From a virus, in UHGV virus genome UHGV-0278189: a stretch of 41,032 bases of DNA; one strand, written 5' to 3'. Below the pieces are notes generated by a model. It made no database searches. It had not been told where the DNA came from and was given only the letters and a program-made list of their open reading frames with translations. The translations under genes and the position numbers were made by a program. This document shows positions 6,711-34,971 of the stretch, one piece after another (position 1 is the first letter of the stretch; every line of letters starts with the position of its first letter).

Positions 6711-6727
6711 ATTACCTTTCGGGTAAT
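6711..6727. promoter_or_regulatory. Operator-like palindrome TTACC-N5-GGTAA (copy 1)
   Basis: aTTACCtttcgGGTAAt between divergent tailspike and 6803 gene. Confidence 0.6.
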
Positions 6728-6802
6728 TTGCAAAACGTGCTGGATAGCAAACAAATTATTTGATACTGTATAAATATACAGTTATTGCATGGAGAAGATA
6801 AG

Positions 6803-7060
6803 ATGCAGCAGTATCACTATCCACTGGAAGACGGATTTACCGAAAGGATTCACACGCCGGGAGGCGTCAGATCACTGGTGGAGGGATCGCACTTGATGAA
6901 ATTACTCCGGGATCTCGATAAGGATGGATTTAATGTCGATGGCCCACTTGCCGAACTGACTGCACTGATTAACTACGTCACCAGCTCACAGATGTCTATG
7001 CAGGATCTGCAAACACATCTCGACTATTGTGCCGAACAATTACGAAAACAAACCACATAA
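6803..7060 (+). CDS. Small protein paralogous to the C-terminal domain of the antirepressor
   Basis: 85 aa from ATG 6803 (GGAGAA RBS at 6791-6796; ORF track starts at TTG 6785); aligns by eye with the C-terminus of the 8206-8898 product (shared LM.LL, DG, AELT, QTH..Y). Confidence 0.55.
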   Translation: MQQYHYPLEDGFTERIHTPGGVRSLVEGSHLMKLLRDLDKDGFNVDGPLAELTALINYVTSSQMSMQDLQTHLDYCAEQLRKQTT

Positions 7061-7066
7061 AGAAAA

Positions 7067-7082
7067 GGCCGCTCTAGCGGCC
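7067..7082. terminator. Bidirectional terminator between convergent genes
   Basis: GGCCGC-tcta-GCGGCC hairpin with A-rich and T-rich flanks; overlaps stop of 7082-7810 gene. Confidence 0.6.
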
Positions 7083-7810
7083 TATCGTTTCGCTTTGTGC
7101 TCGTCCCAGCACGTTTTGCACCATGCCATTAAGCCGTCCGCATTTTGATTATTAGGGTAAAAGCTAGTTCGTTTTCTGCGGACATTACAAATTGGGCACC
7201 ACTTCATATGGCGTGTATTCTTTGGGCCATCGAGACACCTTGCACACCACTTAGTCAATCCATCTGGATTTTTTGACGATTTCCTGAATTTTTCATATGG
7301 AAGGTTTATTCTGCATCGCAAGCACTGCTTGCTACCACTTGAAACTCTGTTAGCTGATTCTTCTTTTGGCGGCGATACAGAAGGTATTCTTGCTGGCTCT
7401 GATACTGCCTGAGGTGCTTTTTTAGATGACTGAGACGATATGTCATCACCAGGGAATCTTCCATGATATGCCGGACGCGTTGACACTCCGGGTGGAAGCT
7501 CAGCTGTAAACGGCTTTGGCTGAATCAGTTGCCTCTCTTTTGCTAACTCCTGCTGTTTATAATATGTCTGGATTACCGCGCTATCATAAGCAGGAGGTAC
7601 GGAAATATTAGGCGCATTATCTCCCGTTTTTTGAAACTGAGTGGAGGTGTGTTCTATCACCTGTGTACGATTAATCGTTATCTCCCCATCTTCAGTCTTT
7701 ATCGTTTTGTTATGATTAACGACCGTACGATCAGAGATCTTAGTCTTGTTCTGGTTGATAACGTAAATAATCACCGCAACCACACCAACAACTACCCAGA
7801 AAACTTCCAT
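7082..7810 (-). CDS. Single-pass membrane protein with C-terminal tandem CxxC zinc-ribbon motifs (function unknown)
   Basis: 242 aa; N-terminal TM helix (VFWVVVGVVAVIIYVI); C-terminus has four CxxC motifs (CLRC, CARC, CPIC, CKTC) in two ribbon-like pairs; GAGGA RBS; operator-like site 20 bp upstream. Confidence 0.6.
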   Translation of the reverse strand: MEVFWVVVGVVAVIIYVINQNKTKISDRTVVNHNKTIKTEDGEITINRTQVIEHTSTQFQKTGDNAPNISVPPAYDSAVIQTYYKQQELAKERQLIQPKPFTAELPPGVSTRPAYHGRFPGDDISSQSSKKAPQAVSEPARIPSVSPPKEESANRVSSGSKQCLRCRINLPYEKFRKSSKNPDGLTKWCARCLDGPKNTRHMKWCPICNVRRKRTSFYPNNQNADGLMAWCKTCWDEHKAKR

Positions 7811-7829
7811 TGCCTTTCCTCACAATAAC

Positions 7830-7846
7830 ATTACCTTAAAGGTAAT
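7830..7846. promoter_or_regulatory. Operator-like palindrome TTACC-N5-GGTAA (copy 2)
   Basis: aTTACCttaaaGGTAAt, 20 bp upstream of the 7810 start codon and in the antirepressor leader. Confidence 0.6.
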
Positions 7847-7922
7847 ATCTTGCTTTCAGGTGATCAAGCGTTAAACGCAATCAACCAAATACGGTTGATT
7901 TTAATATTTCTTCGCGTTTATC

Positions 7923-7939
7923 ATTACCTTTGCGGTAAA
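7923..7939. promoter_or_regulatory. Operator-like palindrome TTACC-N5-GGTAA (copy 3)
   Basis: aTTACCtttgcGGTAAa in the 395-bp leader upstream of the antirepressor gene. Confidence 0.6.
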
Positions 7940-8205
7940 TTTACATCGCACTCCTCTTGTGCCATAGTAATCGGGCACTGGCAAAATCCAGTGCCGGGAT
8001 TGGTCTCCCGGATTACTACAGAGGCACATATGCCGCATAAGCGGTTTTTTTATGTGTAAAGCGCACCTATTCTATGGTGGGCTGTGTGGGGGCACCGAAA
8101 GGTGCGCCGGGTTCCTTTGTAGCCGGTAAGACCAACTCTGCACAGTTCACCACCATCTGATTGGTCTCAGCGGTGGTGATTAACCTAACTACAAAGGTGA
8201 TCGCC

Positions 8206-8898
8206 ATGAATACCAAACCTTCCATCTTTTCCTTTGAGTCATCCTGCCAGATCCGTATGTTCATGATTGACGGAGAACCTTGGTTTGTCACCAAAGATGT
8301 GTGCAATGCTTTGAATATTGATGTTACACAAGCGAGAAAACTTGATAAAAAAGGCTGGAACAAAAAGGGGCTGTATTCAATACAGACCCCTGGTGGAATA
8401 CAAGAACTATCCATCGTTTCAGAATCAGGTCTCTACATCCTTATTCTGCGTTGCAAAGAGGCAATGACTGAGGGAACGAGAGCATTCAGATTTCTTGAAT
8501 GGGTTACAGGTGAGGTTCTTCCTCAGATCCGCCGCACCGGAAGTTACATTAAAAACTCGCTCCCGCAGGAAGAACGCATAAAGATGGTTGCCGACCAGGT
8601 AGCCAACGCCACAGCATCAGCAGTGATGCAGGCAATGAAGATAGAGAACAAAACCTACAGTGCCCCACTGAAGCCCGGCTACCGCAGCCTGATTCATTCT
8701 CCGTCTGGTGTTCTCGGCCTGACGGAGAACTCATTGCTTATGAATCTGCTAAACCAGTTACAGGAAGACGGGCACGACGTATCGGGCGCGGCGGCGGAGC
8801 TGACCACCATGTTCTGCTACATCGTCGGTGTGAGCAAATGCCTGCGTGATATCCAGACCCACGCGGAGTACATCAACGACAAGGCAGGGTTCTTCTGA
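8206..8898 (+). CDS. Antirepressor (Bro-N-like N-terminus, Ant/KilAC-like C-terminus)
   Basis: 230 aa from ATG 8206 with AAAGGTGA RBS (ORF track starts at TTG 8161); N-terminal segment FMIDGEPWFVTKDVCNAL typical of Bro-N/antirepressor proteins. Confidence 0.7.
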   Translation: MNTKPSIFSFESSCQIRMFMIDGEPWFVTKDVCNALNIDVTQARKLDKKGWNKKGLYSIQTPGGIQELSIVSESGLYILILRCKEAMTEGTRAFRFLEWVTGEVLPQIRRTGSYIKNSLPQEERIKMVADQVANATASAVMQAMKIENKTYSAPLKPGYRSLIHSPSGVLGLTENSLLMNLLNQLQEDGHDVSGAAAELTTMFCYIVGVSKCLRDIQTHAEYINDKAGFF

Positions 8899-8963
8899 CG
8901 GGCGGTGGCACAGGGATGTGCCTTTAAAATAATCATTGGCGATGTGATGTAGATTCGCGTAAT

Positions 8964-8980
8964 ATTACCTTACGGGTAAG
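8964..8980. promoter_or_regulatory. Operator-like palindrome TTACC-N5-GGTAA (copy 4)
   Basis: aTTACCttacgGGTAAg between antirepressor and 9039 gene. Confidence 0.6.
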
Positions 8981-9038
8981 AAAGCGTTTTTAATCTTCCC
9001 TTCAAAACGCGTCCTGTAGCCAAACATGGGAGGACGAA

Positions 9039-9671
9039 ATGAAAACAAATACAACAAGAAAAGCGATGCCATACATTATCCCAGAAGCAGATTTCGACAG
9101 AAAACTGAACATGTCTGAGAAGAACACTAGTCACACCGAAAGCTACTTAGCGAAAGGTGTGGTTGATTTCGTTCTTCCGGGATTCACAACACCTTATGGT
9201 TATCGCCTTGTAAAATCTTGTAATGGCGATCATTACAGAATGATTACTACCAGCGATACTCCAGAAACGGTGTATGCGGTTAAGTTAATCTTTCGGGAAG
9301 ATATCGTCGAAGCTAAAAGAACATGTACGCAGATCATGGTATGGCGTACGCCTAATGTTATTCATGACCGTGCTGTTCATGGTTTGCCTCAGATTTTTTT
9401 TCAGTTCTTTCTAGAGCAATATGCGATCGTTGTATCTGATGAGCAACAAACAATCGATGGGAGAAGATTCTGGGAAAGAATGATTTCTTGGGCTATAAAC
9501 ACCCCGGGATATAATGTATACGTTTCAGATGGCTCTGAAGAAGATAGACCTCTTAGCTTCATGACATCATGGGATGATTTCTATAGCCAGTGGGCTGATT
9601 TCTGTTGGGGCAGTGATAAAGATGTGCATACCCACAGACTACTGGTTATAAGCAAAGATAAACTGCATTAA
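9039..9671 (+). CDS. Hypothetical cytoplasmic protein (accessory/moron)
   Basis: 210 aa; GGGAGG RBS; followed by strong terminator; no family recognised. Confidence 0.6.
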   Translation: MKTNTTRKAMPYIIPEADFDRKLNMSEKNTSHTESYLAKGVVDFVLPGFTTPYGYRLVKSCNGDHYRMITTSDTPETVYAVKLIFREDIVEAKRTCTQIMVWRTPNVIHDRAVHGLPQIFFQFFLEQYAIVVSDEQQTIDGRRFWERMISWAINTPGYNVYVSDGSEEDRPLSFMTSWDDFYSQWADFCWGSDKDVHTHRLLVISKDKLH

Positions 9672-9676
9672 TAGAA

Positions 9677-9697
9677 GCCCGCAGCGCGGGCTTTTTT
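9677..9697 (+). terminator. Rho-independent terminator
   Basis: GCCCGC-agc-GCGGGC followed by TTTTTT. Confidence 0.8.
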
Positions 9698-9728
9698 GTG
9701 GACGAAACAAAAGTCAGTGCTACACTCA

Positions 9729-9756
9729 TTGACGCCACATTGAGGTGGCTTATAGA
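9729..9756 (+). promoter_or_regulatory. Putative sigma70 promoter for small secreted-peptide gene
   Basis: TTGACG (9729-9734), 16-bp spacer, TATAGA (9751-9756); lies between two terminators. Confidence 0.35.
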
Positions 9757-9769
9757 TGGAAATTTCACA

Positions 9770-9931: not shown

Positions 9932-9936
9932 AAACA

Positions 9937-9954
9937 AGGCCGCGAAAGCGGCCT
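9937..9954. terminator. Bidirectional terminator
   Basis: aGGCCGC-gaaa-GCGGCCt hairpin; T-run on the - strand side (ttgttttt), serving the 9961-10812 gene. Confidence 0.65.
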
Positions 9955-9960
9955 GTTTGA

Positions 9961-10812: not shown

Positions 10813-10813
10813 C

Positions 10814-17980: not shown

Positions 17981-20451
17981 CAGAATCCCCCAACAGTAAG
18001 GCGAGGAATAACGGCAAGAACAGACAGTGGCAACGGGTCAAGCTGACGGATTCTTACACGTCCGTTTTTGCCCCAGTTACTGTCCAGTTTCACTTCTACT
18101 TTTCCGGTAGCATCATCAACAGGATCATCGTAGAACTCGAATTCACGCTGTGGATATTCGTACCATTTACCGCCGGGCGTAGTCGCCCAGATGCCGCGAC
18201 TGGCATTCACAACCAGAGTAACGGACGGGATCACCTGTTTTTTGTCCAGCAGCGTTTCCTGTCCGTTAATGTTGATATCCAGTGTTTCGAATTCAGCAGT
18301 TATTGGCAGGCCGATGTGCACAACAGCCCCAGGTGATTCCAGCGTGACGGCACCTCCGGAAACCACTTTCTGTGGTTCCACGTTCGCATCAGAGAGAATG
18401 TTTACGGTCTGGCCTTCAAGATGAGACAGGCCTCCAAATGTCCGGCGCGCCATCTGCCAGTTCGTGGTGGCCACATTCCTGAGGGATGGCGGGACGTTCC
18501 TGTTAGCACGAACCACTACAGCGGTGTTGCTGGTTACAGAAATAATGTCGCAACGTAATTCTTTTGACACCTCATCGCCAGTATCAGGATCAGTTCCGGT
18601 ATAAGGGAACTGTAGTTGCGCGCCGACATCACTACTGGTGAAGTACGCACCACCAGAAACACTGATTGTATATTCCGCGCGGTAATCCCATTCGCCAGAA
18701 CCACCAGTGATGATCATCGTTCTGTCAGACGTATTTCTTCCATCATAGCTAAGGCCAGAATCAACAAAGAAAGCATCTTCATCGCTGGTAAATAAACGGC
18801 TGGACAGTCGCTCGATGTATCTCACTGTTTGCCCGTTAACGGTTCGGTTAACGACGAAATACACCGCATCTTCATTGCCTTCGCTGATACTGCATGTGCT
18901 TTCATATTTTCCGGTACTGGATTGTGGTGCCCATGCAAAAACCTGCTGATCACGCAAATAGGTCATCACCAGTAATTTACCGTCATCACGAATGCAGAAG
19001 GCACTGGAGTAAGGGACAATCGAGAAGCACCAGTCAACAATGCTGTGCTTCTGAAAAAGATGATTGGCAAGGATGGTCAGGTCGTTCCCCTGATAGCCGT
19101 CAACATCGAATGAGTAGGCCAGATCACGGACAACGCTGCCTTTCTCCTGGACGAACAGAGCAATATTCGCCACGGCAATTGGCGGGACGTTGCTTGAGCC
19201 ATTTGATCCCTGAGAGCTGAATGCAAATGATGATGGGGTTAACACTTTGTTCTGGTCGCCGGTGATGACGTACTCACCTCCGGAAGTCAGTGCCACCAGC
19301 GAACCGACATCAATCAGGTGGCGGATCTCATTAACCTGACGCCCGGCATAGGTGTAGATAATTCTGTCGTCATCCTGCGTAGGATTGCTTTTGCCAAAAT
19401 CCTTATAATCCCCGGTACGGCTGGCCCAGATAGTCTGAGGAAACGCAGTCGATGCGGCGAAGTAAAGACGTTGTTGATAATAAACAACAGTGCCAGGATA
19501 ACCATTAACACTGTTCCAGGCATATTTAGCCCATTTATAGCTGGCATTATCCTCGCCAACTACCTGCGAAGGGATATAGGAAATCACCTCGGCAGTTGCA
19601 GTAGTTCCATTTGCAGCAGAGATACGGGCAATGCCAAAACCACTGTGCAGATACTCCCACTCAATGCCGGTATCATCATCACCGGATCCGCCCCAGCCAT
19701 CCCATGATGTGCCTTCTGTATGCGAAGGGCGCAAAGTGCCTGTTTTGCCTACTGTAACGGCGCGATAGTAGTTACTGTCTGCACGGCGAATATCGCCAAT
19801 TGACGTACTCTTACTGGTTTCCCATACCGGCACAGAATCCACTGCAGGCTGTTCCAGATAGAACAATTTGCCTACCTGCTCCGCGCCAAAAATAGAGGCG
19901 CTTGCCGTTAACGTAATTGTCCCGGTGCTGGCGCTGGCATAAACCGTCACTGACTCGTCAATATTGATATCTTCAAATGGCCCGTTCTTCGTTACCACAT
20001 CAACCAGTTGCCAGTTGTCATGCGCGTAGCGGCGCAACTCTTTCGGCGGGTATGCCGGGTGAACCAGCGTAAGCACGTCGGCGCTTTGCGTGAATTTAAT
20101 TCGGAACAGATCGGCTTCAGTATATGGCGTGGCAATTTCATAAATAACATTGCTGCTGTTCAGCACCAACGCACCATCTTTGATAACGCGCATGTACTGG
20201 TGCCCGAACTCCAGAGCATAGGTCTGAACCGTCGAGAACTGGAACGGGATCAGGCGGCATTTCCGATTTGGGTATTTGGCGGCACCGACAAAACGCGTAC
20301 CAGGTCGATTCTCAACTCCGCCATACTGCCGCACGATAAAGTTATCGCACTTGCGCAATGCCACCTGGTACTTCGCCATGTCAATACGACCGTACAACGA
20401 CGGTCCAATCTCACCACCGGCAAAGCTGGGCTGGATCCAACTGATAGCCAT
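17980..20451 (-). CDS. Tail tubular protein B / nozzle (T7 gp12-like)
   Basis: 823 aa; N-terminus MAISWIQPSFAGGEIGPSLYGR resembles T7 gp12 N-terminus as I recall it; size and position after gp11-like gene. Confidence 0.6.
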   Translation of the reverse strand: MAISWIQPSFAGGEIGPSLYGRIDMAKYQVALRKCDNFIVRQYGGVENRPGTRFVGAAKYPNRKCRLIPFQFSTVQTYALEFGHQYMRVIKDGALVLNSSNVIYEIATPYTEADLFRIKFTQSADVLTLVHPAYPPKELRRYAHDNWQLVDVVTKNGPFEDINIDESVTVYASASTGTITLTASASIFGAEQVGKLFYLEQPAVDSVPVWETSKSTSIGDIRRADSNYYRAVTVGKTGTLRPSHTEGTSWDGWGGSGDDDTGIEWEYLHSGFGIARISAANGTTATAEVISYIPSQVVGEDNASYKWAKYAWNSVNGYPGTVVYYQQRLYFAASTAFPQTIWASRTGDYKDFGKSNPTQDDDRIIYTYAGRQVNEIRHLIDVGSLVALTSGGEYVITGDQNKVLTPSSFAFSSQGSNGSSNVPPIAVANIALFVQEKGSVVRDLAYSFDVDGYQGNDLTILANHLFQKHSIVDWCFSIVPYSSAFCIRDDGKLLVMTYLRDQQVFAWAPQSSTGKYESTCSISEGNEDAVYFVVNRTVNGQTVRYIERLSSRLFTSDEDAFFVDSGLSYDGRNTSDRTMIITGGSGEWDYRAEYTISVSGGAYFTSSDVGAQLQFPYTGTDPDTGDEVSKELRCDIISVTSNTAVVVRANRNVPPSLRNVATTNWQMARRTFGGLSHLEGQTVNILSDANVEPQKVVSGGAVTLESPGAVVHIGLPITAEFETLDININGQETLLDKKQVIPSVTLVVNASRGIWATTPGGKWYEYPQREFEFYDDPVDDATGKVEVKLDSNWGKNGRVRIRQLDPLPLSVLAVIPRLTVGGF

Positions 20452-21774: not shown

Positions 21775-21775
21775 C

Positions 21776-22213: not shown

Positions 22214-22264
22214 CTTCTTTCTCCATTAGTGGGTCTGTTACGACCCACAGGTTAATAACAGGCG

Positions 22265-25936: not shown

Positions 25937-25950
25937 TTCAATGACTCCGG

Positions 25951-26157
25951 TTACTGACCAAGCAGCGTTTTACCGCTGGTATTAGCGGTTGATGTGTCGC
26001 CCTGAGAACCGGTAAGCAGCGTAGAACTACGACCAGCAGCAGCGCGACGGCGACGAGTTTCTTCGTCGCGGGCATCAACAACGGCGGCATCCTGCTCCTG
26101 TGGTGCTGCCTGAACTTCTGGTGTTGCAGGCACTGATGGTGAGCTACCCATGCACAT
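25951..26157 (-). CDS. Small acidic hypothetical protein upstream of portal
   Basis: 68 aa; GGAG RBS 8 nt upstream; preferred over overlapping 25938..26177 frame. Confidence 0.4.
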   Translation of the reverse strand: MCMGSSPSVPATPEVQAAPQEQDAAVVDARDEETRRRRAAAGRSSTLLTGSQGDTSTANTSGKTLLGQ

Positions 26158-26246
26158 ATCAATGACTCCGTACGCAATTAAATTATTACCAATTTAACCA
26201 CATGTGATTTATTTATCGTAGATACTTGACATTTAACGCACTAATT

Positions 26247-26263
26247 ATTACCTTTCAGGTAAG
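26247..26263. promoter_or_regulatory. Operator-like palindrome TTACC-N5-GGTAA (copy 5)
   Basis: aTTACCtttcaGGTAAg in non-coding region between head operon and tRNA; TTGACA at 26226-26231 nearby. Confidence 0.6.
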
Positions 26264-26584
26264 CAAAGAGTTCATTCCGGTTATTAACCTGACTGGCTTG
26301 TCGTTAAATTGAACAGGTGGGGTGAGCTTTTATTTTGAGCAGTACGGTGTATGGCACATGCGCCGATAGCGGTCTGGATACGTTTAAGGGGCACCCTCCC
26401 TTGCTATGGCAAACGAACCAGGTAGCCGGAATGTGCAAGTCGAGCGGTTTTATTCCGCGCACGGGGATTCACCATCCCGGCGATTCGGTGTGACACCTCG
26501 GAAGAGACGAGGGTGCAACGATGAGAGCATTTATGGAGCCGCGACAAAGTGTGGTGCCTTAACAGGCTAAGTGCTCTCAGCGTT

Positions 26585-26661
26585 GTGGCATTAGCTCAGT
26601 TGGACAGAGCAACCGCCTTCTAAGCGGTTGGTCGCAGGTTCGAATCCTGCATGCCACGCCA
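26585..26661 (+). tRNA. tRNA-Arg (anticodon UCU), phage-encoded
   Basis: 77 nt; acceptor stem GTGGCAT/ATGCCAC, D-arm GCTC..GAGC, anticodon loop CTTCTAA, T-arm GCAGG-TTCGAAT-CCTGC, discriminator G and encoded CCA. Confidence 0.85.
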
Positions 26662-26704
26662 GAATCACGCCTAAGGACCGTGATGCCAGAAGTTCCAGGT
26701 GCTT

Positions 26705-26752
26705 GGCGGTGATGGTTTCCCTTGAAGGACTATCACCGCCCTTGCCCTTTTT
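26705..26752 (+). terminator. Hairpin with T-run in tRNA 3' trailer (putative terminator or processing structure)
   Basis: GGCGGTGAT-17 nt-ATCACCGCC followed by cttgcccTTTTT. Confidence 0.4.
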
Positions 26753-26830
26753 ACAGCAGGACGCCATTGCGATGACTTCATGCTGTAAACCAGTACAGCC
26801 ACGGAAGGCATAACTCATTGCTTCCAGTTC

Positions 26831-26854
26831 GCCCGGTTCGCCGGGCATTTTTTT
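26831..26854 (+). terminator. Rho-independent terminator 12 nt upstream of the 26866 start codon
   Basis: GCCCGG-ttcg-CCGGGC followed by aTTTTTTT. Confidence 0.7.
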
Positions 26855-26865
26855 AAGGTGAGATT

Positions 26866-27240
26866 ATGAACGACCAGCAAATCGAAAAAGAAATCGTTGA
26901 GAAAGGTAAAACGGCACCTCGTGTAACTCCTGAGAAAATTGAAGGTCTCATTTGCAGTGAGCATTTTTTTACTGCTGCGCAGGGGGATCATCAGGCTAAA
27001 GAAGATGACCTTATTTATAATCCAGAGCCTTATGTCGAAGCCACCCCTGATGCTCTGCACCTTCTCACTTTCTGCGTCCTGGTGCTGCGCAACGGCTTCA
27101 CCGTCACCGGAGAGAGCGCCTGTGCAAGCCCGGAAAACTTTGATGCAGAAATTGGTCGGAAGATTGCCCGACAGAATGCTGTAAACAAAATCTGGATGCT
27201 TGAAGGTTACTTGCTGAAGCAGAAGTTAAGCGAGCAATAA
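26866..27240 (+). CDS. Conserved phage protein of unknown function (possibly N4 gp49 / Sf6 gp66-like family, tentative)
   Basis: 124 aa; AAGGTGAG RBS; opposite strand to flanking terminase and head genes; family assignment is weak recollection. Confidence 0.6.
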   Translation: MNDQQIEKEIVEKGKTAPRVTPEKIEGLICSEHFFTAAQGDHQAKEDDLIYNPEPYVEATPDALHLLTFCVLVLRNGFTVTGESACASPENFDAEIGRKIARQNAVNKIWMLEGYLLKQKLSEQ

Positions 27241-27330
27241 CACCGTGACATATCACAAACAGCCAGCCTATGAGCTGGCTTTGTTTTATCCTCATCAGAG
27301 GATATCAACAACATTATCCCCTCAAGCGGA

Positions 27331-28806
27331 TTAAGCATAGGGATCGTAATCTGTGATGGCCTTGCCTTGCTGGTTCTGCTGCCCGGGAATTCGCAGACGC
27401 TTAGACACAGGGAACGCAAACGTCAGCAGTAGCGCATCGCCTTTACCCGGTGAACGCCCAAGCCGCTCCTTGATATCTTCCTTCGGTTCGATAACGATTT
27501 TACCGTCCACTCGAACTTTGTACTCTGCCGCCGACAGGTCGTCTGCTGTTTCCTGGTCATCCAGCATGCCGCCCAGCCTCAGCCATGTCTTGCATGAATT
27601 GAACATCTCCCCACGCTTGTTGAGCATCTGCGGGTCAGTAGACGCGCCACCGAACGGAACAAGTTGCCATGTACGACCCCAGCCGTCACCGATTGACTTC
27701 AAACCGGTTCCGTAACCGAAGTCGATGAACACCGCGTCAGCCTGATACTGGTCTTCAAAGTCAGCGATACGCTTCGCCATAATCAGATCGTCGGTAGTCT
27801 TGTTGCCAGTCCACAGCACCTTACTGTGTAGCCCCTGCCGCAGGTATATCACAGCGTCATCAACGCCGGAGTATGCCGGGTCAACGCCGATTATCACCGG
27901 AGCATGTGCAACCTGCGCAGCGGTTACCACCCGTTTCATTGCCTCGTCAGTAAGACCGGTAGGGATAAACTGCAATTCAGATGCATCAGGGAATATGCCA
28001 CGCACACGGATTTTAACGAAGTCGCTGTCTTCCCCGTAGTCATCAACCCATTTCTGCAACTGCTGTTTGTTAGTGCCTTCCACCGTCCGGCTGTCAATCT
28101 GCGCAGTTTTCCAGCGGTGTTTATATTTGCGGAAACATTCGCGAAAACGCCCGGTGTTACGTGTAGGGTTTCCGAACGCCACCCAAATAATCTCAGTGTC
28201 TTCGTCCGTAAGCGCACCCTCGGCAACTTCCCACACCAGATCCGCAATGTTCGACGCTTCATCAAACACCACGATGATGCGTTTGCGCTCGTTGTGTAGT
28301 CCGGCGAATGCCTCGGTGTTGTGCTCAGACCAGGGTATTGCGTCAGCCCGCCACCGCTTGTCGTGCCCTAGGTCATTGCTGTACATCGCGGTAGCGGTAC
28401 AGGTAAACCAGTCTTTCGTGATAGCAAGGTTCGACCACTTGATAATTTCCGGCCAGGTCTTCGTTCGTAGCTGGTTGTCGGTGTTGGCGGTCACCACGAC
28501 CTTACAATCCTCGCAAGTGGACATGCCCCAGTTGATCAGCATTGAGATGAATGCGGATTTACCAATACCGTGACCAGAAGCGCGTGCCAGCATAAGCGGC
28601 TGATAGCGCGTCTCTGGATTCTGCAGGTGATCACGTATCTCTCGGAACGCATCAGCCTGCCACTGACGTGGGCCGGTGGCATGTGCCAGTTCAGTCCCCT
28701 CTTCCCCCCATGGGAACGCATAGAGGGCATAGCCAAGCGGATCGTGAGTGAACCCTGCAATATCCTCGATTAACTGCTCTTCAGGAGATAACGCTGTATC
28801 TGTCAC
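27331..28806 (-). CDS. Terminase large subunit
   Basis: 491 aa; Walker-A-like ARASGHGIGKSAF near N-terminus; C-terminal nuclease-like region; small-subunit gene directly upstream with 4-nt overlap. Confidence 0.8.
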   Translation of the reverse strand: MTDTALSPEEQLIEDIAGFTHDPLGYALYAFPWGEEGTELAHATGPRQWQADAFREIRDHLQNPETRYQPLMLARASGHGIGKSAFISMLINWGMSTCEDCKVVVTANTDNQLRTKTWPEIIKWSNLAITKDWFTCTATAMYSNDLGHDKRWRADAIPWSEHNTEAFAGLHNERKRIIVVFDEASNIADLVWEVAEGALTDEDTEIIWVAFGNPTRNTGRFRECFRKYKHRWKTAQIDSRTVEGTNKQQLQKWVDDYGEDSDFVKIRVRGIFPDASELQFIPTGLTDEAMKRVVTAAQVAHAPVIIGVDPAYSGVDDAVIYLRQGLHSKVLWTGNKTTDDLIMAKRIADFEDQYQADAVFIDFGYGTGLKSIGDGWGRTWQLVPFGGASTDPQMLNKRGEMFNSCKTWLRLGGMLDDQETADDLSAAEYKVRVDGKIVIEPKEDIKERLGRSPGKGDALLLTFAFPVSKRLRIPGQQNQQGKAITDYDPYA

Positions 28807-29477
28807 TGATTGCCATCCTGACGTTCTTTCAGTCTCTTCCTGGCTGCCGCTATGCGATCAGCAATTGTCACATTCACATTAACATCCAGGCGTTCTTTGA
28901 ATGCGTTGACGTCGACGTGCTTACCAATCAGTTCGAGGTTCTTCACCTTGTCAGGCCATTTAATTTTTTTGAGGATTGTCTCTATCGAATCCTCGTTCAT
29001 GTTCATGATGGTCGATGACAGATCAAAGCCACTAAGCGTAGTGCGCCAGATTTTCGGCCACTCGCGGATTGGCTTAAGGCTCCCATCGTCGTTGAGGATG
29101 TCGATCACGTCCATCTGGTCGATCTCCACCAGGCGCATGAGAACGTAATCAGCACTGACGCGCATTCGTTTGTTGCGCTCTTCCATCAGCTCGGCAATCC
29201 GTTTTTGAATGCGTTCATCGCGCATCATGAGACTGGCTTTAACTGCCGCTGTATTTGGGGAGAATCCTGCGTTAATCGCAGCCTGAGTCTGGTTTTCAGG
29301 CGTTTGGATGTATGACTGGCAATAAGCCTCCTGCATTGCTGTTAGTGGCTTAAATTGCGTTGATTTGCGTTTATAGGTTTTAGGTTCAGCAGGCATCATA
29401 ACCACCGTGGTAATAGTTACCGTTGTGGTAATAGTACCATGCAAAATAAAGCCGCCATAGTTGGCGGCAGTATTCAA
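28803..29477 (-). CDS. Terminase small subunit
   Basis: 224 aa; HTH-like segment LTAMQEAYCQSYIQTPENQTQAAINAGFS typical of small terminases; true start could be internal ATG at 29399. Confidence 0.6.
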   Translation of the reverse strand: MNTAANYGGFILHGTITTTVTITTVVMMPAEPKTYKRKSTQFKPLTAMQEAYCQSYIQTPENQTQAAINAGFSPNTAAVKASLMMRDERIQKRIAELMEERNKRMRVSADYVLMRLVEIDQMDVIDILNDDGSLKPIREWPKIWRTTLSGFDLSSTIMNMNEDSIETILKKIKWPDKVKNLELIGKHVDVNAFKERLDVNVNVTIADRIAAARKRLKERQDGNQ

Positions 29478-29707
29478 AGTCCATCAAATTCATCGTAAAA
29501 ACTCTCGTCAAGATACCCTTCCCATTTACCGCGAATGAAAATTACATCCTCGCCGCAAGGGTGCTGACTGTCGATAACTATATCCCTCCTGGCGCAACCA
29601 TACTTATGCATGAGAAATTTAACCTCTTTCGGAAAATTTGCTGAGTTATCTCTCATATCTTCAAGGTCGTAGCGTATTTTTGGCATAACACCTTCGTGAC
29701 ATGTCAC
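29474..29707 (-). CDS. Hypothetical small protein (nin-like region)
   Basis: 77 aa; coupled to terminase small subunit start. Confidence 0.45.
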   Translation of the reverse strand: MTCHEGVMPKIRYDLEDMRDNSANFPKEVKFLMHKYGCARRDIVIDSQHPCGEDVIFIRGKWEGYLDESFYDEFDGL

Positions 29708-30045
29708 ACTATTAATTTCGTTTCATGCCAGCCTTTAGTCACCCAGCATTGCGAGTCACCATTACACGGGCATGAATTAACGGGAACTCTCTCGCCGCAC
29801 TTACCGCAAAGTTTTCTGCTGATCGATTTTATACGCCCGCGCACACGTGCATCATCCTGGCGGATCAGCAGCGCGATGTACTCGGCCATTTCATAGGGAT
29901 CGTGACCAGGGCGCCGGGCGGCGCAGTTCCGCGCCAGCATTTCCTGCTCCTGCTTATCCAGCACCAGTTCAATTTTGCGCTCACCGGCGGCGGACTGCCG
30001 AGCGCGCTGCGCGGCTTTGCGCTCTGCTGCTGATTTAGCCATCAA
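29704..30045 (-). CDS. Hypothetical protein with C-terminal Cys cluster
   Basis: 113 aa; CGKCG...CPCNGDSQC motif; coupled. Confidence 0.5.
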   Translation of the reverse strand: MMAKSAAERKAAQRARQSAAGERKIELVLDKQEQEMLARNCAARRPGHDPYEMAEYIALLIRQDDARVRGRIKSISRKLCGKCGERVPVNSCPCNGDSQCWVTKGWHETKLIV

Positions 30046-30316
30046 TATTCACCTTTATCGCGAACACCTTTACCGGTTTATCACCGAAGTGCGGATGTGT
30101 GATTGTCTTGATTTCATATCCACCATACGGAACATCAATTCTGCGACTGGAATCGTCGCGCTTCGGATATCCCTTTGTGATAATCAGGCGGTCATATTCC
30201 CGGAACATAATTCGCTTATTCCAGTAGTCATTGCACAGGCGATACTCTTCCGTTTTCTCCCCGCGAATCATGGCATCGAAGTATTCACCTTTGACGGCAA
30301 GTTGTAGGTTAGCCAC
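30035..30316 (-). CDS. Hypothetical small protein
   Basis: 93 aa; coupled with flanking genes. Confidence 0.5.
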   Translation of the reverse strand: MANLQLAVKGEYFDAMIRGEKTEEYRLCNDYWNKRIMFREYDRLIITKGYPKRDDSSRRIDVPYGGYEIKTITHPHFGDKPVKVFAIKVNIDG

Positions 30317-30887
30317 GGTTAACCTCCTGCGGCGGTTCCGGTAGAGGCATCCAGTACAAGGCGTTCCCTAACCACGATAAAGTGCCGTCGCTCAACTCCA
30401 CGTATTCCCCTTGTACCTGTCCTGCCATATACTCGCCGTGCTTTGAATAAATTAAAATCCAATCATCTTGAGCGGGCATTCGCTCACTACAGCTTATCCA
30501 ACCATCCGGAGTTACCGGATAGTTGCCCGACAGCTCGTTCAACTTGTAAGTTTGGCTTACAGGTTCGGCTTCCAGTTCTGCAATGCGCTTCTCTGCAGCT
30601 TCCAGCTCAACACGCAGCTTCCCTACCGTTAGCGCAATATCCTCGTTCTCCTGGTCGCGGCGTTTGATGTATTGCTGGTTTCTTTCCCGTTCATCCAGCA
30701 GTGCCAGCACGGTTTCTGGTCCGGTCAGAAATTTGAAGGCGTTGAGCGCATCAATATCCACACCGTAATCTTTAAGTTCCTGTTCACTTAACAAATCATC
30801 ATCAACTGGCAACATTAACAGGCGATCCATTGCCGGAATTGCACGCTCTGCCTCCTCACGCAGTGCCTGATAGTCAATCTTGCTCAC
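30309..30887 (-). CDS. Hypothetical protein with DUF551-like C-terminus
   Basis: 192 aa; C-terminal GWISCSERMP...WMPLPEPP resembles DUF551 seen on lambdoid early-region proteins (recollection). Confidence 0.5.
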   Translation of the reverse strand: MSKIDYQALREEAERAIPAMDRLLMLPVDDDLLSEQELKDYGVDIDALNAFKFLTGPETVLALLDERERNQQYIKRRDQENEDIALTVGKLRVELEAAEKRIAELEAEPVSQTYKLNELSGNYPVTPDGWISCSERMPAQDDWILIYSKHGEYMAGQVQGEYVELSDGTLSWLGNALYWMPLPEPPQEVNRG

Positions 30888-31420
30888 TGGTTGCCTCCTT
30901 TGCGAAGCTGGGCAGCAAAGTCAACTAACCACTCAGTCATTTCAACCTTCCCTACCAGGTCTGAACCAGGGTGCATACAGCAATCACTCTGCGCCGCTTT
31001 GAAATCCTTATACTCATATTCTTGGGCCACCAGATTTTTTGCAGCTTCTATAGCAGCATCCACCCCCTGCGCCCGTACTTCAGCCAGGAATGCGTCGGTG
31101 GCTGGGGTGTCTGATTGCAGAGACTTTGCGCGATAGTCATTCCACCCTCTTGCATACATGGGATTAACTTGCACTCCATCTTTTACGCAATATGCCTGAC
31201 CTCCACGGTTGATAACCTTGATTTCGCCCATAGCGCCAGACTTCAGCCCCGCATTCTCCACAGCCAGCGCATTAGCACGCACCAGTTGCACTTCCAGTTG
31301 CGTTGCCAAATCGCTGAGCAGCTTTGCCACACTGCGCATATCAACGGCACCACATTCTGCTTTCAGTTCCGAAGCCATCTCATGCCCGTCGGCAACTAAC
31401 CCTTTGATATTACTTTCCAT
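30884..31420 (-). CDS. Hypothetical early-region protein
   Basis: 178 aa; coupled to downstream gene. Confidence 0.5.
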   Translation of the reverse strand: MESNIKGLVADGHEMASELKAECGAVDMRSVAKLLSDLATQLEVQLVRANALAVENAGLKSGAMGEIKVINRGGQAYCVKDGVQVNPMYARGWNDYRAKSLQSDTPATDAFLAEVRAQGVDAAIEAAKNLVAQEYEYKDFKAAQSDCCMHPGSDLVGKVEMTEWLVDFAAQLRKGGNQ

Positions 31421-31481
31421 CTTTACCCTCGCTTATCCACATAACTTATTGATTACATTGATAACTAAAAAGATCGTCGAT

Positions 31482-31829
31482 TCAGAACTCTTCGATGTTC
31501 CAGCCACCACCTGCTTTCTTTGGTTTAACCGTTACCCCGATGATTCGGAACGGATACTGATCTGCGGCGACTTTGGTTTTCACCCTGGCGTCGTCGGTCC
31601 AGAATCCCCCTTTCACTTCGTGCAGCTCCATCTCGCCGGTGGCGAGCATCACAGCAAAATCGGGCGTATAGAACGTGTTGTCAGCTAACCGCAGCTTGAT
31701 ACCCTCAAATCGATACCAGACGATTTCTCCTGCACGTTTACGCATCTCAAGGTGCTGGCAATACGCAGATTCTGTTTTGTTCATCTGGCCTGTTTTGAGT
31801 CGACCAAGAGCCTGTATCTGTTTTCTCAT
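31482..31829 (-). CDS. PD-(D/E)XK-like small nuclease-fold protein (DUF1064-like)
   Basis: 115 aa; motif YTPDF...ELHEVKG consistent with a PD-(D/E)xK core. Confidence 0.5.
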   Translation of the reverse strand: MRKQIQALGRLKTGQMNKTESAYCQHLEMRKRAGEIVWYRFEGIKLRLADNTFYTPDFAVMLATGEMELHEVKGGFWTDDARVKTKVAADQYPFRIIGVTVKPKKAGGGWNIEEF

Positions 31830-31831
31830 GA

Positions 31832-31848
31832 TTTACCTCTGAGGTAAT
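31832..31848. promoter_or_regulatory. Operator-like palindrome TTACC-N5-GGTAA (copy 10)
   Basis: tTTACCtctgaGGTAAt immediately upstream of the 31829 start codon, overlapping its RBS. Confidence 0.55.
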
Positions 31849-31893
31849 TAAAAACCACATAAGACACGAAATCAATAGAGTTTAGAATATTTT

Positions 31894-31910
31894 GTTACCC
31901 AACAGGTAAC
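31894..31910. promoter_or_regulatory. Operator-like palindrome TTACC-N5-GGTAA (copy 6)
   Basis: gTTACCcaacaGGTAAc between P-like gene end and the DUF1064-like gene. Confidence 0.55.
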
Positions 31911-31946
31911 TATCAAGACATAAAAAAATGCGCTATCGCGCTGGTA

Positions 31947-32723
31947 TTACTTGATAAATCCTGCCGCCTTTCCCCGCCTGTATTCCTCCATCAGCCACTG
32001 CGCCGGTGTTATTCCCCCCAGGGTGGCGGCGTTAGGCATGCACCCGAAACTTCGCCCTGGCGGGTGGTAAACGTCTCTCCCTGTGTCCGGAGGCGTACTC
32101 ATGGGTTCTGGCTTTGCCTGTATGCTGATCACCGGATCGGGTATCTGCTGTCCGGAAGCCACCTTTTTCGCCCAATCATCGAGCAGCCTGCGCGCGTGTT
32201 TCTCAACCTCAATCTCGCTAAGCTGGCGCTGATACATTGCACGGCGGGTATCACATACGACCCAGTACATAACCGGATGCCGCCACGGGAATCTTTCGGG
32301 ACCACCAGGATATAAACTTTTTTCCTTGCTGTACCGGTGAAACTCCGCCATCACATCGTCAATGGTGACGCCAAGAACCATCTTGCTGTCTTTACACCAC
32401 TTGATGAATTGCCCTGGCGACGGCCAGAACGGAGACTCACTGGCGCGGGCGTGGCGCATACCAGCGTTAACCTGTTCCATTGTAGTGATCCCATTCTCCA
32501 GAAACGCAAGCATCCATTGCTTACGGAATTCATTAAGTTTGTTCTGCTCCCTTATGGTCGAAACGCTTGCAGGAAATGCAGCCTGTAACTGGACAAATAG
32601 TTCATTGAAAATTCTAGCGACCTGCTCCTTTTTGCCATTGCTGTCACGCCGCTCTTCATGCACAGCAACACCATGCTCACGTAAGCGATCGTACTCATTG
32701 AGAAGTTCTGGAGTTGATTTCAT
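31947..32723 (-). CDS. Replication protein P-like (helicase loader)
   Basis: 258 aa; segments FPAS..REQN..NE.RKQWMLAFLENGITTMEQVNAGMRHAR and PSPGQFIKWC match my recollection of lambda P. Confidence 0.75.
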   Translation of the reverse strand: MKSTPELLNEYDRLREHGVAVHEERRDSNGKKEQVARIFNELFVQLQAAFPASVSTIREQNKLNEFRKQWMLAFLENGITTMEQVNAGMRHARASESPFWPSPGQFIKWCKDSKMVLGVTIDDVMAEFHRYSKEKSLYPGGPERFPWRHPVMYWVVCDTRRAMYQRQLSEIEVEKHARRLLDDWAKKVASGQQIPDPVISIQAKPEPMSTPPDTGRDVYHPPGRSFGCMPNAATLGGITPAQWLMEEYRRGKAAGFIK

Positions 32724-33543
32724 CCCACACCCCTTCTATCCAGTCAGTGTTATTCCAGTCAAGCTCATCGCTTTTCCCGACGTTTTTTGATTTTCCCCTG
32801 ATATGATTTACGTGCCTGGCGAATTTTTGTTCCCACTGAACCTGCGTGAACACTTTGCCCTCAGCCATCCAGTAATCCCGGAATGCAGCAAGTTCAGCAG
32901 GTGTAAATTCCGGTTCCGGCAGGGCCGTTCCCCACAGCGCAGCACGCCGTCGAAAATCCGGCGACGGATGCCAGCCATCGGTCATCGGAAATTTCCCAAT
33001 AGGTTCACTCAGGCCATCCAGAAATGCAGGTTCTGCCACCTGCAACGGCGTACCGTTCGCTTCACTGGTCGGAGCACCCTCGCGCACGTGCGCTATGTGT
33101 GGGGTTTTATATATATCTTCCTCTTCCTCTTCCTCTGGTAACTCCTTTTGTAACGCTGTTGGCGTTACTTTTTGCGTTACTCGTTTTCGATGCTCTGCCA
33201 CTCTTCTATTCGTAAGTGCACGTTTTTTCGATGATTCTCCATTATGTCGCTCAAAGTTTGGAAGAATTAGTTTGCCGTCATGATAAGCAAGCCATCCGAC
33301 GCTAATGAGGGCGTCAGCAAATCCTGTAATAAAAGCGAGTCTATCAAGTACTCCTTTTGTAACGCTGCCAGCGTTACCGTCTATTGTTTGCTGGTCAGCC
33401 CATGCCCATATACGAACCAGCTTTCCAAGAACAGCATCTGGATCAATACCCAGAATTTCTGCTATCTGAAAAATTTCAGGTTTATCAGGAGTGATAACTT
33501 CAACCTTAATCCAGCTGCTTGCCATAGGTTTCCCCTCTTGCAC
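32695..33543 (-). CDS. Replication initiator / replisome organiser (O-like position) with poly-Glu linker
   Basis: 282 aa; sits directly upstream of P-like gene; contains EEEEEE linker and two DNA-level repeat copies inside the gene; C-terminal region may be DnaT-like. Confidence 0.6.
   Translation of the reverse strand: MQEGKPMASSWIKVEVITPDKPEIFQIAEILGIDPDAVLGKLVRIWAWADQQTIDGNAGSVTKGVLDRLAFITGFADALISVGWLAYHDGKLILPNFERHNGESSKKRALTNRRVAEHRKRVTQKVTPTALQKELPEEEEEEDIYKTPHIAHVREGAPTSEANGTPLQVAEPAFLDGLSEPIGKFPMTDGWHPSPDFRRRAALWGTALPEPEFTPAELAAFRDYWMAEGKVFTQVQWEQKFARHVNHIRGKSKNVGKSDELDWNNTDWIEGVWDEINSRTSQ
33141..33180. repeat. Iteron-like repeat copy 1 within O-like gene
   Basis: actccttttGTAACGCtgttgGCGTTACtttttGCGTTAC next to AT-rich atatatat and polypurine tract. 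Confidence 0.5.
33350..33377. repeat. Iteron-like repeat copy 2 within O-like gene (perfect 9-1-9 palindrome)
   Basis: actccttttGTAACGCTGcCAGCGTTAC; shares an 18-nt block (actccttttgtaacgctg) with copy 1. Confidence 0.5.
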
Positions 33544-33718
33544 TCTTTAGTGCACAAGCAAATTCATTACGATGGCGGTTGGCGCTATTCATTGCACATT
33601 CAACACATGTTCCGTTCAGAACATACCTTTCAGAGAGATGGCCGTGACGGCACCGCTTTCCTGTGAAATAGCGATTTAACCCGGCTTTTGCGGCCTCCAT
33701 TCTGGTTACTATCTTCAA
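33506..33718 (-). CDS. Small zinc-finger-like protein between cro-like and O-like genes
   Basis: 70 aa; CRHGH...CVEC motif; occupies cII-like position; overlaps O-like start. Confidence 0.45.
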   Translation of the reverse strand: MKIVTRMEAAKAGLNRYFTGKRCRHGHLSERYVLNGTCVECAMNSANRHRNEFACALKSARGETYGKQLD

Positions 33719-33795
33719 TTTTTCCGCCCCTTTTTGTTATTGATATTGGCTATTTTGCACAATTGGAAAACTTGATCAACCAGATTTGGTTTTTT

Positions 33796-33812
33796 ATTAC
33801 CTTTGAGGTACG
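33796..33812. promoter_or_regulatory. Operator-like site, one mismatch (TTACC-N5-GGTAC)
   Basis: aTTACCtttgaGGTACg between cro-like terminator hairpin and replication genes. Confidence 0.4.
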
Positions 33813-33825
33813 AATAGATATGAAA

Positions 33826-33845
33826 AGACCGCCGGGTGGCGGTCT
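33826..33845 (-). terminator. Hairpin downstream of cro-like gene (tR1-like, putative)
   Basis: AGACCGCC-gggt-GGCGGTCT; on the - strand followed by TTTCATATCTATT. Confidence 0.45.
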
Positions 33846-33866
33846 ACAGAGGGTTGTAGCTGGATA

Positions 33867-34097
33867 TCATGAGTAGAAGAAGTATGCCAATTCTGCTTTT
33901 GAGCGCAGCCATTGTCTTGTTTTACAGGCTTTAAAAAGCCCATTCATCAATACCTTACCTGGCATTTTGCGCTTACCTGTTAAGTGAGTCTGGATATAGT
34001 GACTCGTCGTTCCGGCTTCCTGTGCGAAGGCTTCACGCTCATCCGGAGTAAGTGCAAGCCAGTGCTTTTTGAAATCGAAATGTCCGTTATCGCTCAT
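33867..34097 (-). CDS. Cro-like HTH regulator
   Basis: 76 aa; divergent from repressor gene across a 154-bp operator region; HTH-like segment EAGTTSHYIQTHLTGKR. Confidence 0.6.
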   Translation of the reverse strand: MSDNGHFDFKKHWLALTPDEREAFAQEAGTTSHYIQTHLTGKRKMPGKVLMNGLFKACKTRQWLRSKAELAYFFYS

Positions 34098-34180
34098 AGC
34101 TATTGCCTGATATTTATTTCAGATAATAAATATTCACCCATAAGGTAACAAAAATCAAGGATAGTTACCTGTGTGGTGCA

Positions 34181-34197
34181 TTTACCTGTTGGGTAAT
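34181..34197. promoter_or_regulatory. Operator-like palindrome TTACC-N5-GGTAA (copy 7, OR-like)
   Basis: tTTACCtgttgGGTAAt in cro/repressor intergenic region; additional half-sites GGTAAC (34144) and GTTACC (34164) nearby. Confidence 0.65.
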
Positions 34198-34251
34198 ATT
34201 GCTTTAAATTGAATCATCTACTGATTCATATATGAGGCGATTTTCCAGAAA

Positions 34252-34836
34252 ATGAAAAGTATCCAGGACGTCCGCAGGCAAAATCTCAACGACTTGATCG
34301 ACCGTGAATTCAATGGTGTTCAGACGCGGATGGCTGAAAAACTTGGAACTCAGGCAAATCTGGTAAACCGCTGGGCTCTTGGCAAGAAGGTTATCGGCGA
34401 CCAGGTTGCACGAAAAATTGAAGCTGCCGCCAATAAACCCCGTAACTGGCTTGATATCGATCGCTCGCTTTCTCAGGAAGGTTTTCAGCCTGTCGGCCCA
34501 AGCGACATTGGCCAGCTGGCGGCTCACAACCTGGAACGCTGGATGAGCGAAAGCCGCGACCTTTCAACACAGGGAAAACTTCACCGCGCATCCGGCGTAG
34601 CCCAGGTGACAATCAGCCGCCTATTAAACAATGAGGTCAGCGTTTCCATTTCCACCCTGGAGAATGTTGCATCCGCATTCGGGCGTCACGGCTATGAATT
34701 ACTGATTCACCCGCACGACCCTGCGACCATCAACTATGATCGCTCGCGCTACGCATTGTTACCCGAAACCGAGAAAGCAAAGATCGAAAGTTACATTGAA
34801 TTTGTCATCAACCAGAACGAAAAAAACAAACAATAA
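34252..34836 (+). CDS. CI-like repressor with HTH motifs and no LexA-like protease domain
   Basis: 194 aa; two HTH-like segments (TQANLVNRWALGKKVIGDQVARKIE and ASGVAQVTISRLLNNEVSVSISTLENVASAFG); divergent from cro-like gene; followed by strong terminator. Confidence 0.6.
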   Translation: MKSIQDVRRQNLNDLIDREFNGVQTRMAEKLGTQANLVNRWALGKKVIGDQVARKIEAAANKPRNWLDIDRSLSQEGFQPVGPSDIGQLAAHNLERWMSESRDLSTQGKLHRASGVAQVTISRLLNNEVSVSISTLENVASAFGRHGYELLIHPHDPATINYDRSRYALLPETEKAKIESYIEFVINQNEKNKQ

Positions 34837-34858
34837 AACCATATTTTTCAGTAAGTAA

Positions 34859-34882
34859 GCCGCCTTATGGCGGCTTTTTTAT
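34859..34882 (+). terminator. Rho-independent terminator after repressor gene
   Basis: GCCGCC-ttat-GGCGGC followed by TTTTTTATT. Confidence 0.8.
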
Positions 34883-34892
34883 TGCCTATTCG

Positions 34893-34909
34893 ATTACCTG
34901 ACGGGTAAT
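34893..34909. promoter_or_regulatory. Operator-like palindrome TTACC-N5-GGTAA (copy 8, OL-like)
   Basis: aTTACCtgacgGGTAAt. Confidence 0.65.
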
Positions 34910-34927
34910 TTTTTTAACTCATATCTA

Positions 34928-34956
34928 TTGACATCAAACCATATACGCATAATTAT
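34928..34956 (+). promoter_or_regulatory. Putative pL-like sigma70 promoter
   Basis: TTGACA at 34928-34933; AT-rich -10 candidates ~16-17 bp downstream; overlapped by operator copy 9. Confidence 0.35.
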
Positions 34957-34971
34957 TACCTCAACGGTAAC
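34955..34971. promoter_or_regulatory. Operator-like palindrome TTACC-N5-GGTAA (copy 9, OL-like)
   Basis: aTTACCtcaacGGTAAc plus extra half-site GGTAAC at 34979. Confidence 0.65.

Follow-up and report, generated by a model that had tools for sequence, protein, structure and literature searches.

A palindromic operator set dispersed over the promoters of a phiV10/epsilon15-type prophage and its probable control by a single repressor

We propose that the palindrome TTACC-N5-GGTAA, which is repeated across the viral genome UHGV-0278189 (a stretch of 41,032 nucleotides that was analysed at its full length and is referred to here as the window), is the operator of one prophage repressor, Rep, and that Rep acts through it on nearly all of the promoters of a phiV10/epsilon15-type prophage. 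We consider this assignment very likely. The repetition is strongly non-random, and the core idea of the initial annotation of this sequence, namely that a single regulator controls many promoters, is right: the same palindrome is annotated in phage epsilon15, and the window sites are syntenic with the annotated ones and lie on -35 and -10 elements. The operator set is not new, since it is known for the genus and the window is close to sequenced phages.

A non-random and intergenic palindrome

An exact scan of the window returned 11 copies of TTACC-N5-GGTAA (Table 1) compared with none in 100 dinucleotide-preserving shuffles, and recalculation of the chance expectation (41032 x 4^-10 = 0.04) gave the same figure as the initial annotation. 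That annotation had counted ten exact copies, missing the one at 29417, and had placed the start of each copy one base too low. The single one-mismatch copy that it listed is present, at 33797, but three further degenerate copies had been overlooked, two with one mismatch (29399 and 34134) and one with two (34165). All four degenerate copies are intergenic and sit at conserved places; another one-mismatch copy, at 6480 within the tailspike gene, is at about chance level.

Every operator site is intergenic, as had been claimed, and the majority overlap promoter -35 or -10 elements. Placement was judged against maximal open reading frames (ORFs), a generous call that tiles 93% of the window. Eight of the 11 exact sites lie outside all of these, and the ORFs that contain the remaining three are either spurious or over-extended: ORF 7850-8059, which overlaps the isrK RNA, the 5' extension of terS, and, for the site at 34956, an antisense TTG ORF.

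The family logo, built from 405 unique sites, is (A)TTACC-NNWNN-GGTAA(T). The flanking A and T of the 17-bp form, ATTACC-N5-GGTAAT, are present at most window sites, and the central W is the sole informative position of the spacer. That the spacer begins with T, which had been noticed at the outset, holds for the plus strand of the window but is not a feature of the family (T in 42% and A in 30% of the 405 sites); it arises partly because -10-like TACCTT hexamers fall within some of the operators. The copies recur at fixed distances of 62 bp, of 17-18 bp (in the rep/cro region and at terS) and of 93 bp (7831 and 7924, a pair also found in TL-2011b).

A scan of related and unrelated phages, which had been suggested as a check, bears out the specificity of the motif. 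We compared six relatives (phiV10, TL-2011b, Tyrion, BUCT711, epsilon15, and SPC32H), and each carries 8-11 exact copies in matching relative positions, with Rep just 42-78% identical in four of them. Among unrelated temperate phages, an exact copy is absent from lambda and occurs once in P22. The P22 copy and a one-mismatch copy 24 bp away (P22 32861-32899) lie in gene 18, within the annotated replication origin (32840-32984), and are probably an unrelated iteron.

Phage identity and prior annotation of the sites

The right-hand 15 kb of the window (26000-41032) is approximately 97% identical to the Escherichia phages HEMP4, vB_EcoP_ZX5, TL-2011b, and phiV10, which stand within or beside the genus Uetakevirus (epsilon15-like podoviruses), and judged by this similarity the window is a phiV10/epsilon15-type (Uetakevirus) prophage. 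The immunity region is found in 541 of 5,426 complete Escherichia coli genomes, and among its relatives are Salmonella phages that convert the serotype and phages used for O157 typing.

The GenBank record of epsilon15 (NC_004775) already documents the operator set, as it holds seven 'protein_bind' features with the product 'repressor', the note 'lysogeny' and sequences of the form ATTACC-N5-GGTAAT. Three of these precede terS, the head operon and the tail fibre gene, three stand between the repressor gene and the early-left genes, and one comes before the nin-like genes. The window sites are syntenic with them, as shown by aligning the early-left, nin-like, terS, head, and tailspike/ant regions. 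Four further epsilon15 sites that look real (33341, 33358, 35969, and 24704) carry no annotation in the record. In the same alignments, and in those of the replication and rep/cro regions, the half-sites are invariant amid diverged flanks. A full-text literature search for the operator sequence returned nothing relevant, and the paper on ZX5 does not define operators.

Conserved copies with one mismatch are found in the relatives at additional syntenic positions. One of these, present in all six relatives, lies approximately 40-60 nt upstream of the integrase start codon (26870, 26882, 26960, 28568, 12620, and 135). The matching region lies past the right end of the window, in which the int ORF runs off at 41032.

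Placement of the operators on promoters

Operators are found at the early-left, cro-like, replication, nin-like, and terS promoters, at the divergent head/tRNA promoters, in the tailspike region and at three accessory-gene promoters, and they stand in four arrangements relative to the core promoter elements. In the first, the last T of the -10 hexamer is also the first T of the operator, and this is the case for the early-left, nin-like, terS, and isrK/C4/ant promoters and probably for site 8965 as well. In the second, the operator lies within the promoter spacer, as it does in the cro-like promoter (34134) and perhaps in a tailspike promoter, where operator 6712 occupies the spacer of TTGCAA(6733-6728)-16-TATCTA on the minus strand. 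In the third, a -10-like TACCTT is part of the operator and lies 17 nt past a -35 element; this arrangement faces gene 7082-7810 and, at operator 26248, the tRNA-Arg/gp50-like unit. The fourth comprises the distal operators 34894 and 31895 and the degenerate 33797, which are located 17-19 nt upstream of a -35 element. Hence, with operators that touch or adjoin the core elements of almost all promoters, Rep alone could silence the whole prophage without an antitermination cascade.

Some of these assignments depend on how the promoter or the gene start is read. The promoter scan had also offered TTGATA-16-CAAAAT for the nin-like promoter, with 31895 in its spacer, and this was dropped because its -35 element is not conserved; the conserved TTGATT-17-TTTAAT is the promoter adopted here, with 31833 at the start site. 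The maximal terS ORF (28803-29477) is over-extended, as the relatives begin terS downstream of operator 29417, and the start codon is probably the ATG directly after operator 29399. One-mismatch copies occupy the position equivalent to 29399 in four of the six relatives (phiV10, TL-2011b, Tyrion, and epsilon15), and all seven genomes keep an operator at the position of 33797 whose left half is imperfect. The tRNA-Arg gene appears, from the sequence, to have a Rep-controlled promoter of its own, in which TTGACA (26226-26231, plus strand) is followed after 17 nt by the TACCTT within operator 26248. This -35 element (TGTCAA on the other strand) is kept in six of the seven genomes and is replaced by GGTCAA in BUCT711.

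Operators paired at 62 bp

The early-left and nin-like promoters each carry two operators exactly 62 bp apart, and so they do in all six relatives, with a spacing of 63 bp in a single case. A scan of viral contigs for operator pairs 47-77 bp apart returned 120 loci, among which the commonest spacings are 62 bp (96 unique sequences) and 63 bp (11 unique sequences), making 107 together. One fixed design is found in 101 of the 115 unique pairs at 61-64 bp: a distal operator, 19 nt, TTGAnn, 17 nt, and a -10 hexamer whose last T opens the proximal operator. Identity over the 47-nt interval between the operators goes down to 34%, with a median of 57%. As 62 bp corresponds to about six helical turns and a Rep tetramer would have two DNA-binding pairs, the spacing suggests that a single tetramer bridges both sites round the promoter. 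One tetramer would thereby hold both operators and enclose the promoter in a small loop.

The operator set as such adds little as a discovery, because the epsilon15 record annotates it and the repressor and antirepressor are known as a crystallised pair, and what the present analysis adds is modest and testable: the fixed 62-bp design and the second, late-promoter motif described below. That a Rep tetramer bridges the 62-bp operator pairs and that the second motif is the site of a second global regulator, two things that may be undescribed, is together possible, if rather doubtful.

Rep, the antirepressor and the SOS input

Rep has the same sequence as phiV10 gp40 (100% identity) and shares 42% identity with epsilon15 gp38, and its PDB and Pfam matches make it a protein of the HTH_3, SPC32H type. 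It consists of an N-terminal helix-turn-helix domain, in which the segment NLVNRW is invariant across the genus, a middle helix-turn-helix-like domain and a C-terminal domain for tetramerisation and Ant binding. The Pfam search of Rep returned helix-turn-helix families alone and no S24 peptidase domain. According to published summaries, SPC32H Rep (PDB 5D50 and 5D4Z) is a tetramer on palindromic DNA sites whose DNA-binding domain pairs come from different dimers and which is broken by Ant; its C-terminal domain is said there to be akin to tetramerisation domains of the looping type, and its repression mechanism is one that 'has not been extensively characterized'. The Rep tetramer of the window is predicted to have two pairs of N-terminal helix-turn-helix domains, each of which would read one 15-17 bp palindrome of the form (A)TTACC-NNWNN-GGTAA(T). 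When the ZX5 repressor, which is identical to the window Rep, was over-expressed, endolysin and holin transcripts fell by more than 99.9%.

The small antirepressor Ant and the LexA box TACTGTATAAATATACAGTT over its promoter would constitute the SOS input of the switch, and the box is kept before ant in all seven genomes. By homology to SPC32H, DNA damage would take LexA off this box, and Ant would then bind the C-terminal domains of Rep and dismantle the tetramer, such that all of the operators would be freed simultaneously. SPC32H Rep is reportedly left uncleaved after SOS induction and inactivated by the LexA-controlled Ant. One Ant-sensitive repressor on every promoter would explain both the full silence of the prophage and its switching on by the SOS response in a single step.

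The window contains three matches to CTGT-N8-ACAG compared with 0.5 expected. The two that lie elsewhere (22235-22250 and 26783-26798) are probably due to chance, as their centres are GC-richer than that of a good LexA box.

Which factor reads the palindrome

Several points weigh against control of all these sites by Rep. The binding of the motif by Rep draws on database annotation and second-hand statements, and looping over 62 bp is deduced from the spacing alone. Operators 6712, 26248, and 33797 do not clearly overlap the best-conserved elements of the tailspike, head, and replication promoters, so that simple occlusion may not apply there. In addition, the small cro-like protein encoded divergently from rep shows conservation no lower than that of Rep and accompanies it in every case, and sequence alone hence cannot tell whether Rep, the cro-like protein or both read the motif.

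The last point leads to the alternative that the cro-like protein (33867-34097) is the main reader of the palindrome and damps all promoters through it in the lytic phase, and that Rep binds elsewhere or at the sites of the immunity region only. The conservation of the cro-like protein is 58-84% compared with 43-78% for Rep, and its invariant helix-turn-helix segment (AGTTSHYIQ.HLT) parallels the invariant half-sites. Its gene co-occurs with the motif at every locus that covers the region, although the presence or absence of the two regulator genes in the 120 viral loci is uninformative, as they are always found together. However, Rep has an invariant segment of its own in the N-terminal domain, the epsilon15 record credits the sites to the repressor, and it is the role of Rep to keep all of these promoters off, as a lysogen needs. 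We therefore regard the cro-like protein as an improbable main reader. The two proteins could share the operators, as in lambda, which would be an addition to control by Rep rather than a rival of it, and the cro-like protein may either share these operators or bind the second motif.

Recognition by a host DNA-binding protein is considerably less probable still. The epsilon15 record annotates IHF sites beside some of the operators, which gives no direct support, while lambda and P22 are almost free of the motif, which occurs at 8-11 copies per genome just in phages that have Rep and the cro-like gene and clusters between rep and cro in the fashion of a phage operator.

That the copies act as RNA hairpins, with a stem of 5-6 bp and a 5-nt loop, for antitermination or RNase III processing is the least credible of these proposals. 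The geometry equals that of lambda boxB, some copies (31833 and 29399/29417) would be transcribed, and RNase III sites are annotated elsewhere in epsilon15. The stem, however, is invariant and does not covary, with only one of the 74 two-mismatch copies beside exact sites being compensatory, and it is for this lack of covariation that the reading is rejected; the conserved degenerate copies all break a pair, the loops are unconserved, and the positions of several copies, within promoter spacers or ahead of the -35 element, leave them untranscribed from that promoter. A role as a restriction or methylation target was dropped because the sites occur at promoters only. Repression by Rep at dispersed operators remains the reading that we prefer.

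A second conserved motif

The regulatory regions of the window also hold a second motif, CATATNNGGTT, which often lies within the longer near-palindrome AACC-ATATAT-GGTT (AACC-N6-GGTT) and has the palindromic form (A/T)(A/T)CC-ATAT-NN-GGTT. Written as an oligonucleotide it is CCATATGTGGTT. A -10-like hexamer follows it at a distance of 7 nt in all seven genomes at the head and tailspike regions, and in five relatives at the lysis region as well; in the window's own lysis region it directly abuts TACTAT, and that of BUCT711 is without it. The motif overlaps the -35 element of the replication operon, and related sequences are found in the spacers of the nin-like and early-left promoters. Its exact copies in the window, phiV10, and epsilon15 are all intergenic, lambda has none and P22 has one, and it is not annotated in the epsilon15 record. 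The second motif may be the site of a second global or late regulator, either the cro-like protein or a Cys-rich gp49-like protein, and with no need for antitermination such a regulator would move the genome from early into late expression.

Accessory features and the region upstream of terS

The promoter that carries operator 7924 drives isrK, the C4 RNA and the Bro-N antirepressor, and this module is a second antirepressor route that would itself be held off by Rep. It and the other features are listed in Table 1.

The initial annotation had reported no Q-like antiterminator gene. We likewise found none in the window, and no antiterminator is annotated in five relatives. In lambdoid phages Q is kept upstream of terS, and at this position the window has a regulator-like ORF (29704-30045), separated from terS by a single 77-amino-acid ORF (29474-29707). 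The encoded protein is 78-97% identical in hundreds of enterobacterial prophages and is basic at its N-terminus and rich in Cys at its C-terminus, and its AlphaFold model is poor, with a pLDDT (predicted local distance difference test) score of 62. Searches of Pfam, NCBIfam and PDB gave no match, and with no family or PDB match its candidacy as a Q-type antiterminator was dropped.

Table 1. Operators, regulators and associated features of the window (positions in nt; relatives as named in the text)
Feature	Position	Strand	Context and evidence
Exact operator	6712-6726		Exact scan; between tailspike gene (3488-6607, -) and small ant gene (+); syntenic with epsilon15 annotated site 19895-19911
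Exact operator	7831-7845		Directly upstream of accessory gene 7082-7810 (-); -10-like TACCTT inside, 17 nt past TTGATC (7867-7862)
Exact operator	7924-7938		Starts on last T of -10 of rightward promoter (TTGATT 7895-7900, 18 nt, TATCAT 7919-7924)
Exact operator	8965-8979		Starts on last T of -10-like TAATAT (8960-8965); upstream of gene 9039-9671 (+)
Exact operator	26248-26262		Between head operon (-) and tRNA-Arg/gp50-like unit (+); syntenic with epsilon15 annotated site 2931-2947
One-mismatch operator	29399-29413		18 bp from 29417; abuts probable terS start codon
Exact operator	29417-29431		On minus strand starts on last T of extended -10 TGgTACTAT, directly upstream of terS; syntenic with epsilon15 annotated site 12-27
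Exact proximal operator, nin-like promoter	31833-31847		Promoter on minus strand: -35 TTGATT 31875-31870, 17 nt, -10 TTTAAT 31852-31847
Exact distal operator, nin-like promoter	31895-31909		62 bp from 31833, 19 nt upstream of -35; matches epsilon15 annotated site 35906-35922
One-mismatch operator	33797-33811		Past cro-like gene terminator, 17 nt upstream of conserved TTGATC -35 of replication operon
One-mismatch operator	34134-34148		Inside leftward cro-like promoter (-35 TTGATT 34158-34153 or TTGTTA 34151-34146)
Two-mismatch middle operator, rep/cro intergenic region	34165-34179		Homologous site exact in epsilon15, SPC32H, BUCT711
Exact operator adjoining rep	34182-34196		17 bp from 34165
Exact distal operator, early-left (PL-like) promoter	34894-34908		19 nt upstream of -35; matches an epsilon15 annotated site
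Exact proximal operator, early-left (PL-like) promoter	34956-34970		TTGACA 34928-34933, 17 nt, AATTAT 34951-34956; covers about -7 to +8
Rep, prophage repressor, presumed motif binder	34252-34836	+	PDB 5D50_A match over full length, E 4e-42
Cro-like small regulator, divergent from rep	33867-34097	-	PHROG 35 'transcriptional repressor', E 6e-13
Small antirepressor Ant, 85 aa	6803-7060	+	PDB 5D50_E 'Anti-repressor protein', E 1e-47
LexA box over ant promoter	6764-6783		Perfect CTGT-N8-ACAG at 6766-6781
P1 immI-like module	7895-8898	+	Rep-operator promoter (7924), isrK small RNA 7975-8051, C4 antisense RNA 8070-8157, Bro-N antirepressor from ATG 8207-8898
Accessory gene with own operator (7831)	7082-7810	-	242 aa; C-terminal part weakly matches endonuclease VII/Lar-like zinc-finger families
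tRNA-Arg (anticodon TCT)	26585-26661		Divergent from head operon
Regulator-like ORF upstream of terS	29704-30045	-	113 aa; PHROG 536 'transcriptional regulator' sole match
Second motif	3242-3252, 6645-6655, 6672-6682, 26196-26206, 31853-31863, 33778-33791, 34937-34947		Regulatory regions only

Comparison with known systems

The initial annotation had likened the dispersed sites to the stoperators of mycobacteriophages and to the operators of P1 C1, and had set them apart from a lambda-style switch. Stoperators of cluster A mycobacteriophages are asymmetric, follow the direction of transcription and stop elongation within transcription units. While the window shares with them the many copies of one repressor site genome-wide, its sites are symmetric and lie over -35 and -10 elements or 17-19 nt upstream, and because they are palindromic and on promoters the analogy fails.

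The comparison with P1 (immI, c4-icd-ant) stands in terms of regulatory logic, as in both cases one repressor acts on many scattered promoters and induction proceeds through an antirepressor. A C4 antisense RNA is present in the window as well, together with an ant operon whose promoter bears a repressor operator. P1, however, exists as a plasmid prophage, and its C1 operators are asymmetric 17-mers, whereas the sites of the window are perfect palindromes; the likeness is thus functional only. P1 C1 is also not known to be an HTH_3-type relative of Rep.

The contrast that had been drawn with lambda is not upheld, since a lambda-like core is present and the dispersed sites are additional to it. 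As in lambda and P22, three operators (34134, 34165, and 34182, conserved in six aligned genomes) lie between divergent rep and cro-like genes, and the early-left promoter has operators of its own, two in the window. The window differs from lambda and P22 in that Rep is without S24 self-cleavage, that N and Q genes were not found, that operators are also located on the replication, nin-like, packaging, head, tailspike, and accessory promoters, and that they are paired at 62 bp rather than arranged as tandem triplets.

The closest parallels are within the genus. Epsilon15 has the identical palindrome at the same dispersed, syntenic positions (terS, head, tail fibre/ant, early-left, and nin-like) and a homologous repressor; the window has additional accessory-region operators (7831, 7924, and 8965) and two early-left operators where epsilon15 has three. 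With its 17-bp palindrome, its syntenic intergenic positions and a Rep homologue beside the operator cluster, the window has the sequence marks of a Uetakevirus Rep operator set. It likewise has an induction switch of the SPC32H type, in which a small Ant stands under a LexA box: Rep and Ant are full-length homologues of those of SPC32H, the LexA box lies over the ant promoter in the same way, and SPC32H has ten exact operators at the same places. Ant is far closer between the two phages than Rep, which is 42% identical, and to this shared switch the window adds the isrK-C4-Bro-N module as a second antirepressor system.

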